NCBI GenBank assembly: GCA_963812605.1
Contig: CAWEWF010000008.1
Coordinates: 160,001-224,000 of the forward strand
DNA: 64,000 bases
Reading direction: 5' to 3'
DNA from: an uncultured Verrucomicrobiae bacterium
Lineage (GTDB): Bacteria; Verrucomicrobiota; Verrucomicrobiia; Palsa-1439
Both the position numbers and the translations under genes were made by a program. The notes beneath the pieces were generated by a model that did no database searches, had not been told where the DNA came from, and saw only the letters and a list, made by a program, of their open reading frames with translations. Each line of letters starts with the position of its first letter. The first letter of the stretch is position 1. Below, one piece after another: positions 51,250-52,617 of this stretch.

Positions 51250-51361
51250 GCCGGTAGTGCCTTAATTTCCGAATGGGAGGGACGCGCTCCGTCGCGTCCG
51301 CTGTCGTCAACGATCCCGGACGGCTACGACGGAGCGTGGCCCTTGTATCTAGAATTTTTGG

Positions 51362-51585
51362 TACTCTCTGGCTTGGTTTCCCACCGGTGTGGGAGCGACA
51401 GGATGGCCCTTGGGGGCATGCCCCCCAAGGGCGCGCGGAAGTGATCGTCGTGGCCCTCGGTTCGGTTCAGACCTGTCCGTTTGGAGCTGGATCCATCCGC
51501 GTTGCCTGTCGGTACGCTCGAACAGTTGCCAGAGCGGCGGTCGCGCCCATCCGCGCCACCACCAGCTCGCATTGCAAGGAGGAGT
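51362..51585 (+). ncRNA. Bridge RNA of the IS110 element (ends approximate)
   Basis: 5' hairpin 51406-32; target loop with CGTGGCCCT (51449-57) and TGGAG (51482-86); donor loop with ACAGTTGC (51522-29) and TGCAAG (51573-78). Confidence 0.8.
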
Positions 51586-51591
51586 CTAACC

Positions 51592-52533
51592 ATGTTGCCA
51601 TCGATCGTCTACGTCGGAATGGATGTCGCCAAACTCACCCTGGATCTGCACGCCGCCAGCGGATCCCGCGCGCAGTTCCGTCAGTTTCCCAACCACCCTC
51701 AGGGCCACCGCGCCTTGGTGCGTTGGCTGCAAGCTCTGGGATCCGTGCACGTCATCGGCGAAGCCACAGGCGGCTATGAACGCGCCGTCGTGGCCGCCCT
51801 GCACGCGGCCGGTGTAGTGGTTTCGGTAGTCAACGCGCGTCACGTGCGCGACTTCGCCCGCGCCACCGGTCGGCTGGCCAAGACTGACCAACTGGATGCC
51901 GCCGTGCTGGCGGCTTACGGCGCCGCCGTACGCCCGGCCGGCACCGCCGCGTTGAGCGCCGCCCAGAGTCAACTGGCGGAGTTGGTCACCCGTCGCCAAC
52001 AAGTCCTGGCGCTGCGCGTGGCCGAGCACAACCGCTTGGAGCATCTCACCCACCCCAACGCCCGCCGGCAGATCCAGCGCCACCTCAGCCAACTGGATCG
52101 ACACCTGGAACAGCTCGCCGCGTGGATCGCCGCCTTGGTCCAAGCCGAGCCCGCGCTGGCGCAGAAAGTCGCCCGACTCTGTTCGGTGGTCGGCGTGGGA
52201 CGCCTGACGGCCGTCGTGCTGTTGGCGCTGCTGCCGGAATTGGGCACGCTGAATCGGCGCCAGGCCGCGGCGCTGGCGGGTGTGGCTCCCTTCAATCGCG
52301 ACAGTGGTCCGCATCGGGGACGCCGACAAATCGGCGGAGGACGGCCCGCCGCCCGGCGGGCCTTGTACATGTCGGCTCTGGTGGCGGCCTTTCGCCACCC
52401 GCAATTGCAGCCCTTCTATCAACGCTTGGTGGCCAAGGGCAAGGCCCCCAAAGTCGCCCTGGTCGCCGTCATGCGCAAACTCATCATCTTACTCAATCGC
52501 CTGCTCCAAGAACCTACTTTCCAACCCTTATGA
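51592..52533 (+). CDS. IS110 DEDD recombinase/transposase
   Basis: [15 protein letters not shown] and KTDQLDA (DEDD); FNRDSG catalytic Ser; [12 protein letters not shown] and VAVMRKL motifs. Confidence 0.95.
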
Positions 52534-52617
52534 AAAGACAGTTGCTCCAGATTAGGGCACCACCAGTAAGCCGGGAAATGGGTTTGCAACAAGTCGGCCT
52601 TGAGATAATGTTACCGT

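Follow-up and report, generated by a model that had tools for sequence, protein, structure and literature searches.

A very probable bridge-RNA-guided, IS621-like insertion sequence at REP-like hairpins of an uncultured Verrucomicrobiae bacterium

The window analysed here is a stretch of 64,000 nucleotides from an uncultured Verrucomicrobiae bacterium (GenBank assembly GCA_963812605.1, contig CAWEWF010000008.1, positions 160,001 to 224,000 of the forward strand); coordinates below are those of the window unless another contig is named. We conclude that its segment 51342–52546 is very probably a complete insertion sequence (IS) of the IS110 group, similar to IS621, that moves by bridge-RNA-guided recombination. 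The limits of the element, the family of repetitive extragenic palindromic (REP)-like sites that it occupies, the complementarity of its guides to those sites and to its own ends, and the conserved fold of its left end are observed directly. The mechanism, which was described in 2024, is unchanged by this case: it is a clean new example, and its differences from IS621 are of degree only.

The element and its recombinase

51342–52546, + strand: whole insertion sequence; the same span is found in four full copies at 99–100% identity
51592–52533, + strand: recombinase gene, 313 amino acids (aa) plus stop, ATG at 51592 (domain, profile and PDB matches)
52534–52546, + strand: right end, 13 nt, composed of AAAG, the left donor ACAGTTG (52538–52544) and the core CT (sequence and copy comparison)

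An earlier note on this DNA, made by a model from the letters and open reading frames (ORFs), had proposed an IS621-like IS110 element at 51342–52546. That proposal is borne out by the protein and by the copies. Both recombinase domains are present (PF01548 at 1.8e-24, PF02371 at 4.4e-15), and with the NCBIfam profile NF033542 (“IS110 family RNA-guided transposase”) the protein reaches 204.7 bits (cut-off 140). The only two PDB matches are IS621 (8wt6_A, 3.8e-40) and ISCro4 (9t56_A, 2.9e-39), both over residues 5–300. As the note had stated, the DEDD residues and the serine of the SG motif are retained: D11, E57, D99, D102 and S238-G239 align opposite the catalytic residues of IS621, of which D102 and S241 are named in the accessible part of PMC11208158. 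The note had also called the protein compact; its length of 313 aa was given correctly, but the IS621 chain, with 328 residues in the deposited entry, is not much longer.

The element spans 1205 bp on the + strand and has the layout CT-TGTATC...ACAGTTG-CT, with the CT cores at 51342–51343 and 52545–52546. The host genome (15 contigs, 4.17 Mb) contains four full copies, which are 99–100% identical, and a fifth that is truncated near element position 728; the end bases are identical in all five. Comparison of occupied with empty sites shows a CT at each end of the element in the former versus a single CT in the latter. The 313-codon frame is intact in three of the four full copies, with 0–2 amino-acid differences, and because these three copies retain intact genes the family looks recently active. 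The left end comprises 250 nt of non-coding DNA, the right end just 13 nt; Verrucomicrobial relatives have an equal right-end layout, in which the left donor begins 4 nt past the stop codon. No terminal inverted repeats were found, with 10 of 40 end bases agreeing in the inverted register.

Occupied and empty REP-like sites

51322–51341, + strand: left flank, type-A REP hairpin GGCTACG-ACGGAG-CGTGGCC (20-mer present 15 times in the genome, allowing one mismatch)
52547–52560, + strand: right flank, remaining part of the type-A REP unit (CCAGATTAGGGCAC); empty copies run on as CTCCAAATTAGG... or CTCCAGATTAGG...
51276–51299, − strand: partner REP unit of type B, GGACGCGACGGAGCGCGTCC-CTCC, in an inverted pair with the type-A unit (pattern and copy scans)

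Where does the element sit? In the window it is preceded by ...GCGTGGCC and followed by CCAGATT.... All five left ends in the genome adjoin ...CGACGGAGCGTGGCC, and the four right ends continue as CCAG, CCGA, CCAA and CCAA. Every copy thus lies at CGTGGCC-CT-CC, and none at an unrelated site; copies at unrelated sites are what, by the earlier note's own test, would have refuted its reading. The note's assignment of the target to a REP also holds, as the site belongs to a REP-like family of inverted hairpins that includes unoccupied copies.

This family is small and has two unit types, A (GGCCACG-ACGGAG-CGTGGCC-CTCC) and B (GGACGCG-ACGGAG-CGCGTCC-CTCC), which usually occur as an inverted pair 15–25 nt apart. 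A 19-nt REP pattern has 24 matches in the host genome at up to two mismatches, versus none for the reversed control. The left target, CGTGGCC (51335–51341), is the 3′ arm of the type-A hairpin. Of the 15 places that carry this hairpin at up to one mismatch, four hold the element and 11 are empty; the 5′ arm of the fifth occupied site is degenerate. The exact 11-mer target CGTGGCCCTCC is present in ten of the 11 empty type-A units. Genome-wide there are 15 unoccupied CGTGGCCCTCC sites, ten in a REP hairpin and five outside REP units. No type-B unit is occupied; its equivalent of the left target, CGCGTCC, differs from that of type A at two of seven bases.

Two side observations concern these flanks. 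The 12-mer CCAGTAAGCCGG occurs at 51243–51254, some 90 nt to the left of the insertion and overlapping the stop codon of an upstream 574-aa gene, and again at 52563–52574, 17 nt to the right; this repetition may reflect REP context or chance. Separately, a single low-depth contig of 152 nt from one metagenome run (X1, window position 51339) joins the left end of the element to a flank unlike the REP hairpin, which suggests another insertion site in the community.

A conserved RNA fold in the left end

51378–51395, + strand: 5′ hairpin 1 (RNAalifold columns 37–54, four pairs with compensatory changes)
51406–51432, + strand: 5′ hairpin 2, GCCCTTGGGGG-CATGC-CCCCCAAGGGC (alignment and RNAalifold)
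51434–51501, + strand: target-binding loop module, consisting of a basal stem, the left target guide, a distal stem-loop and the right target guide (RNAalifold, comparative structure, covariance model)
51513–51588, + strand: donor-binding loop module, consisting of a basal stem, the left donor guide, a long distal stem-loop and the right donor guide (RNAalifold, comparative structure, covariance model)

The fold of the left end is conserved among relatives, with compensatory changes. RNAalifold, applied to eight full-length aligned left ends, returned the two 5′ hairpins and the stems of the target and donor loops, in all 64 pairs, 16 of them with compensatory changes. A hand-written IS621-style structure of 156 columns was also scored against the alignment: 95.4% of its cells pair, versus 29–46% once the partners are slid; both sides change in seven pairs, and none of 500 shuffles reached its covariation score. 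The covariance model built from this structure has one match in the 64-kb window, at 51433–51588. Among the 80 related loci described below, it has a full-length match on the strand of the recombinase gene and upstream of it in 56 (one locus, L041, has two); in the other 24, several of which have little upstream DNA, there is no match at E ≤ 0.01. The 34 distinct matched sequences show compensatory changes in 29 of 33 pairs, although this alignment was fitted to the model and hence leans towards the structure.

The comparative fold refines the two stems named in the earlier note. CGCGGA/TCCGCG does close the target loop, as its basal stem, and has compensatory changes in the RNAalifold result. 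GAGC/GCTC, on the other hand, is not a closing stem but the base of the distal stem-loop between the two donor guides; the donor loop is closed by GCUC (51516–51519) with GAGU (51582–51585). The ribosome-binding site GGAGGAG (51578–51584) overlaps the 3′ strand of the donor-binding loop module.

The G6-CATG-C6 core of 5′ hairpin 2 is invariant in relatives. As a separate observation, its G run (51412–51416) is five long in the window copy but six long in three other copies, as it is in contigs from two metagenome runs. With six G, pairing to the six C of this hairpin would be perfect; the shorter run is possibly an assembly error or a real variant.

Guides and handshake nucleotides

51449–51457, + strand: left target guide (LTG), CGTGGCCCT = CGUGGCCCU, identical to left target plus core (9/9 against all five left flanks)
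51480–51486, + strand: right target guide (RTG), UUUGGAG, reverse complement of the REP consensus CTCCAAA (four right flanks and covariation among relatives)
51487–51488, + strand: target-loop handshake dinucleotide CU (direct reading; rule from the accessible part of PMC11208158)
51522–51529, + strand: left donor guide (LDG), ACAGTTGC = ACAGUUGC, left donor plus first core base (8/8 with 52538–52545)
51571–51578, + strand: right donor guide (RDG), ATTGCAAG = AUUGCAAG, pairing with CTTGTAT (51342–51348) through one G-T wobble and with one unpaired U
51579–51580, + strand: donor-loop handshake dinucleotide GA (direct reading; same rule and source)

All four guides stand in the order and register known from IS621. 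The two left guides were read correctly in the earlier note, the LTG as a 9/9 match to the target including the core, which all five left flanks confirm, and the LDG as an 8/8 match to the donor. The base after the LDG is C rather than T, as in IS621. Could such matches arise by chance? When left-end positions 31–250 were shuffled 200,000 times with their composition preserved, the LTG 9-mer appeared in 700 shuffles and the LDG 8-mer in 452, and both in order in none.

The right guides needed revision. The TGGAG that the note gave as the RTG is present (51482–51486) but too short, as it sits inside the 7-nt TTTGGAG. The right flanks of the four full copies read CTCCAGA, CTCCGAA, CTCCAAC and CTCCAAG, so that the core-proximal CTCC is exact in all four. 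In the distal three bases each flank has one difference: an A-to-G change, still pairable with U, in two flanks, and, in the other two, C or G facing U at position 7. The 7-nt length is supported by covariation of the RTG with the flanks among relatives. The RDG given in the note, TGCAAG with one G-T pair, lies at 51573–51578 inside ATTGCAAG; its register, however, is better described as AU-N-N-CAAG with one unpaired (flipped) base. It is the sequences at the RDG position in relatives (AUCACAAG, AUCGCAAG and AUGCCAAG) that point to this register.

According to the accessible part of PMC11208158, the handshake nucleotides of IS621 lie 3′ of the RTG and RDG and take their pairing partner, position 7, from the other DNA and not from their own. 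The same arrangement can be read here. The C at 51487 could pair with donor position 7 (G, 52544) but not with target position 7 (C), and the G at 51579 could pair with target position 7 (C, 51341) but not with donor position 7 (G).

Guides covary with insertion sites among relatives

One genome per species was scanned, which yielded 150 stretches encoding relatives, and the best 80 of these 150 were kept. Within this set, the closest relatives (60–74% protein identity) are multi-copy elements of 1194–1210 bp in Verrucomicrobiae metagenome-assembled genomes; more distant ones (36–52%) come from Gemmatimonadota, Chloroflexota, Proteobacteria and others. The close relatives carry other guides, which match their own flanks, in agreement with the earlier note's description of the element as a retargeted orthologue. 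Two of them (L033 and L034) have the guides TCCAGCCCT and TTTGTAG and sites TCCAGCC-CT-ACAAA, while a family of 17 copies (L039) has AGTCGCCCT and TTGGTAG and sites AGCCGCC-CT-ACCAA. The LDG varies as well, and its variants ACAACTGC, ACGGTTGC, ACAGCTGC, ACAGTCGC and ACGGATAC recur just past the elements' own stop codons.

Element ends were recognised by motif in 42 of 81 sources; in two more loci, L047 and L069, a right end was not found. Three of the 42 (L040, L051, L059) are without full flanks, and the remainder collapse to 12 element groups; in L083 and L089 the right-end position used falls inside the gene end and is doubtful. A strict pairing rule for the LTG and left target (exact core, at most one mismatch) missed many distant relatives and was replaced by a comparison of cognate with non-cognate pairs. 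For the right-target 7-mer, cognate pairs are exact in nine of 12 groups and one base off in three, versus exact matches in four of 132 non-cognate pairs. For the left-target 9-mer, at most one mismatch is found in six of 12 cognate and one of 132 non-cognate pairs.

The left target forms the 3′ arm of a hairpin in sampled relatives too, with 8-bp stems for L033 and L034 and 8–9-bp stems at 17 of 17 sites of the L039 family; controls mostly have 1–5 bp. In L041 (458–613 and 1841–1996), two related copies stand head to tail about 1.4 kb apart, both of the neighbouring hairpin units being occupied.

Proposed mechanism

51350–51367, + strand: candidate −10 elements of a circle-junction promoter, TAGAAT (51350–51355) and TGG-TACTCT (51359–51367), from a hexamer scan of the junction of right and left ends

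IS621 homology, guide complementarity and covariation together argue for the standard bridge-recombination cycle, in which we infer the circle, promoter, transcript and catalysis as follows. The element would excise as a circle joining ...ACAGTTG-CT-TGTAT..., and a promoter would probably be created across the junction. Promoter-like ATGAAA-17-TAGAAT (9 of 12 positions) and TTGCTT-17-TACTCT, the latter −10 preceded by TG, are found in the joined form only, the integrated form being without both −35 boxes. The TTGCTT combines the end of the left donor with the core and the left end's first base, and a TGGTAnTnT (−10) is conserved in the seven relatives' left ends that cover this region. From such a promoter, the left end may be transcribed into an RNA of about 215 nt that would consist of the two 5′ hairpins, the loop for target binding and that for donor binding, a fold that covariation supports. 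By homology to IS621, the DEDD/Ser recombinase would bind this RNA. The LTG (9 nt) and RTG (7 nt), complementary to the two strands of CGTGGCC-CT-CCAAA, would pair with the target, and the LDG (8 nt) and RDG, complementary to the junction ACAGTTG-CT-TGTAT, with the donor. Recombination at the CT core would then insert the element immediately 3′ of the REP hairpin. By analogy with ISPpu10, the structure of the target may contribute to specificity, given that the left target makes up the 3′ arm of a GC-rich hairpin.

It is conceivable, although we hold it rather doubtful, that the Verrucomicrobial clade represents a natural bridge variant of higher specificity, characterised by a 14-bp target reading (the 9-nt LTG and the 7-nt RTG sharing the core), a REP-hairpin gate, the extra 5′ hairpin (G6-CATG-C6) and the 13-nt right end. 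On the same reading, the junction promoter may have its −35 in TTG-CT-T of the left donor and core, with the ribosome-binding site inside the donor loop. If true, these features would link the recognition of the donor to expression of the RNA and translation of the recombinase within about 30 nt.

Comparison with known systems

The comparison with IS621 rests on the PDB alignment and on PMC11208158 (Hiraizumi et al. 2024) and PMC11208160 (Durrant et al. 2024), in their accessible parts; blastn against E. coli genomes gave a sole match of 93 bp (72%) to ISEc32 transposase genes and did not reach IS621 DNA. In those papers the IS621 guides are a 9-nt LTG covering left target plus core, a 4-nt RTG that is longer in some orthologues (PMC11208160, PMC11208158), an 8-nt LDG (A123–C130) covering the left donor and only the C of the core, and an RDG that is discontiguous and forms a G-T pair at donor position 12 (G161-dT12; both PMC11208158). 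The present element shares the 9-nt LTG, the 8-nt LDG, an RDG with the wobble at donor position 12 and, 3′ of both right guides, a handshake position. It also shares the two domains and catalytic residues, IS621 being the best PDB match, and an RNA that the left end encodes, upstream of the gene, in the order 5′ stem-loop, target loop, donor loop. The CT core, the right donor CT-TGTAT, the REP target and the lack of inverted repeats are further likenesses, as far as the same sources go.

The earlier note had described the IS621 donor as close to this one. Of the IS621 donor, the right half, CT-TGTAT, and positions 6–7 (A, T) agree with the accessible part of PMC11208158; positions 6–7 are TG here versus AT in IS621. 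The proteins are distant (E = 3.8e-40 over residues 5–300), and host and REP family differ. As described in the same portions of these papers, the IS621 left end is 191 bp, versus 250 nt with a second 5′ hairpin here; its RTG has 4 nt versus 7; its RDG leaves two U unpaired versus one; and its right end is about 107 bp (298 bp for both ends) versus 13 nt.

ISPpu10 of Pseudomonas putida, for which a stem-loop “gate” has been reported (bioRxiv 10.64898/2026.03.19.712850, a preprint accessible in part), is similar in several respects. It is an IS110-group element, all of its insertions are in one REP type, the 3′ arm of a stem-loop that is GC-rich and lies 5′ of the CT core serves as its left target, and its REP units are often in convergent pairs. 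The stem and loop are 7 bp and 6 nt here versus about 5 bp and 4 nt in that preprint. Unlike that of ISPpu10, the REP family here is small, at about two dozen units, and a role of its stem-loop is proposed from sequence. With the IS1111 group the element has in common a DEDD recombinase and RNA-guided site choice. Those elements carry the RNA in a long right end and have subterminal inverted repeats of 7–17 bp, whereas here the RNA is in the left end, the right end is 13 nt and such repeats are absent. In domains, end layout, fold, guide complementarity and CT core, every feature of the IS110 group that a sequence can reveal is present.

Thousands of IS110 elements already have a bridge RNA predicted for them in surveys since 2024. 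A search of literature full text, which did not cover the supplementary orthologue tables of PMC11208160, found no paper combining “bridge RNA” with Verrucomicrobi*. Here the four guides, the two handshake positions, the family of target sites and the empty sites are all displayed by one genome, and close relatives of the element are retargeted to other hairpins. Together they form a comparison set for natural bridge-RNA retargeting, long right-target guides and REP-hairpin gating of insertion.

Contrary evidence and alternative explanations

Several observations weigh against the conclusion that this is a working bridge-RNA element, and they fall on the RNA, the targets and the copies. Folded as a single sequence, the left end is not significantly stable (z = −1.85; seven of 200 shuffles as good). 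This fold is unconvincing alone, and we therefore relied on the comparative data; the fold check that the earlier note had proposed thus gave a conserved structure among relatives but not from the one sequence. A search of Rfam (4227 families, E ≤ 1) over 51000–53000 gave no match, the library apparently being without a bridge-RNA family. The transcript, its ends and its promoter are predictions. Contigs from four soil-metagenome runs of a single study showed neither a circle junction nor an excised site, although they stop at the IS ends and so are uninformative on circles and empty sites. With respect to targets, left-target matching is loose (2–4 mismatches) in six of the 12 more distant groups. 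Also, the sites of the related Verrucomicrobiae copies L035 and L036 match the RTG but not the LTG, with about four of seven left positions mismatched as judged by eye (L036 uncertain); they resemble the off-target insertion of “half-match” type to which the title refers in bioRxiv 10.64898/2026.08.31.748434, which was accessible in part.

The copies bear on the alternative that survives best, though we consider it unlikely: that this is a genuine IS110 element now inactive, a fossil whose guide matches record past specificity after loss of the RNA or recombinase. A full copy on contig C4 has a 1-bp deletion at element position 601, which shifts the frame and leads to a stop at codon 121, and the fifth copy is truncated as described. 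Two copies (C10:232950-234154 and C4:299879-301084) have 1-bp indels at the base of the donor loop's distal stem (element positions 223–224); these may be real decay or assembly error. No RNA run turned up among the sequencing runs that contain this sequence, nor did the metagenome contigs show a circle junction. Against this stand the three copies with the full 313-codon frame, the 99–100% identity of the copies, the intact catalytic residues and the guides, which are unchanged in all five copies.

A very improbable alternative is that the conserved left flank belongs to the element, in which case the hairpin GGCCACG-ACGGAG-CGTGGCC would be IS-borne and the LTG match an internal repeat. All five left flanks do share at least 15 identical bases past the proposed end. 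However, the eleven IS-free hairpin copies run straight into CT-CC..., the flanks diverge in sequence and spacing further left, left and right flank joined give the exact empty-site sequence, and relatives with other LTGs adjoin other hairpins.

Least probable of all is that the protein or the DNA structure of the REP hairpin mainly chooses the target, RNA complementarity being secondary: all five insertions have a hairpin context while the five non-REP exact 11-mers are empty (numbers too small for significance), 17 of 17 L039-family sites keep the 8–9-bp hairpin despite left-target variation at positions 2–3, and the ISPpu10 preprint reports a stem-loop gate, but type-B units, with the same hairpin shape and CT-CC and two different left-target bases, are never occupied, and across relatives both target guides change along with the flanks.

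A short distance downstream of the insertion, a 76-aa ORF lies at 52618–52848.

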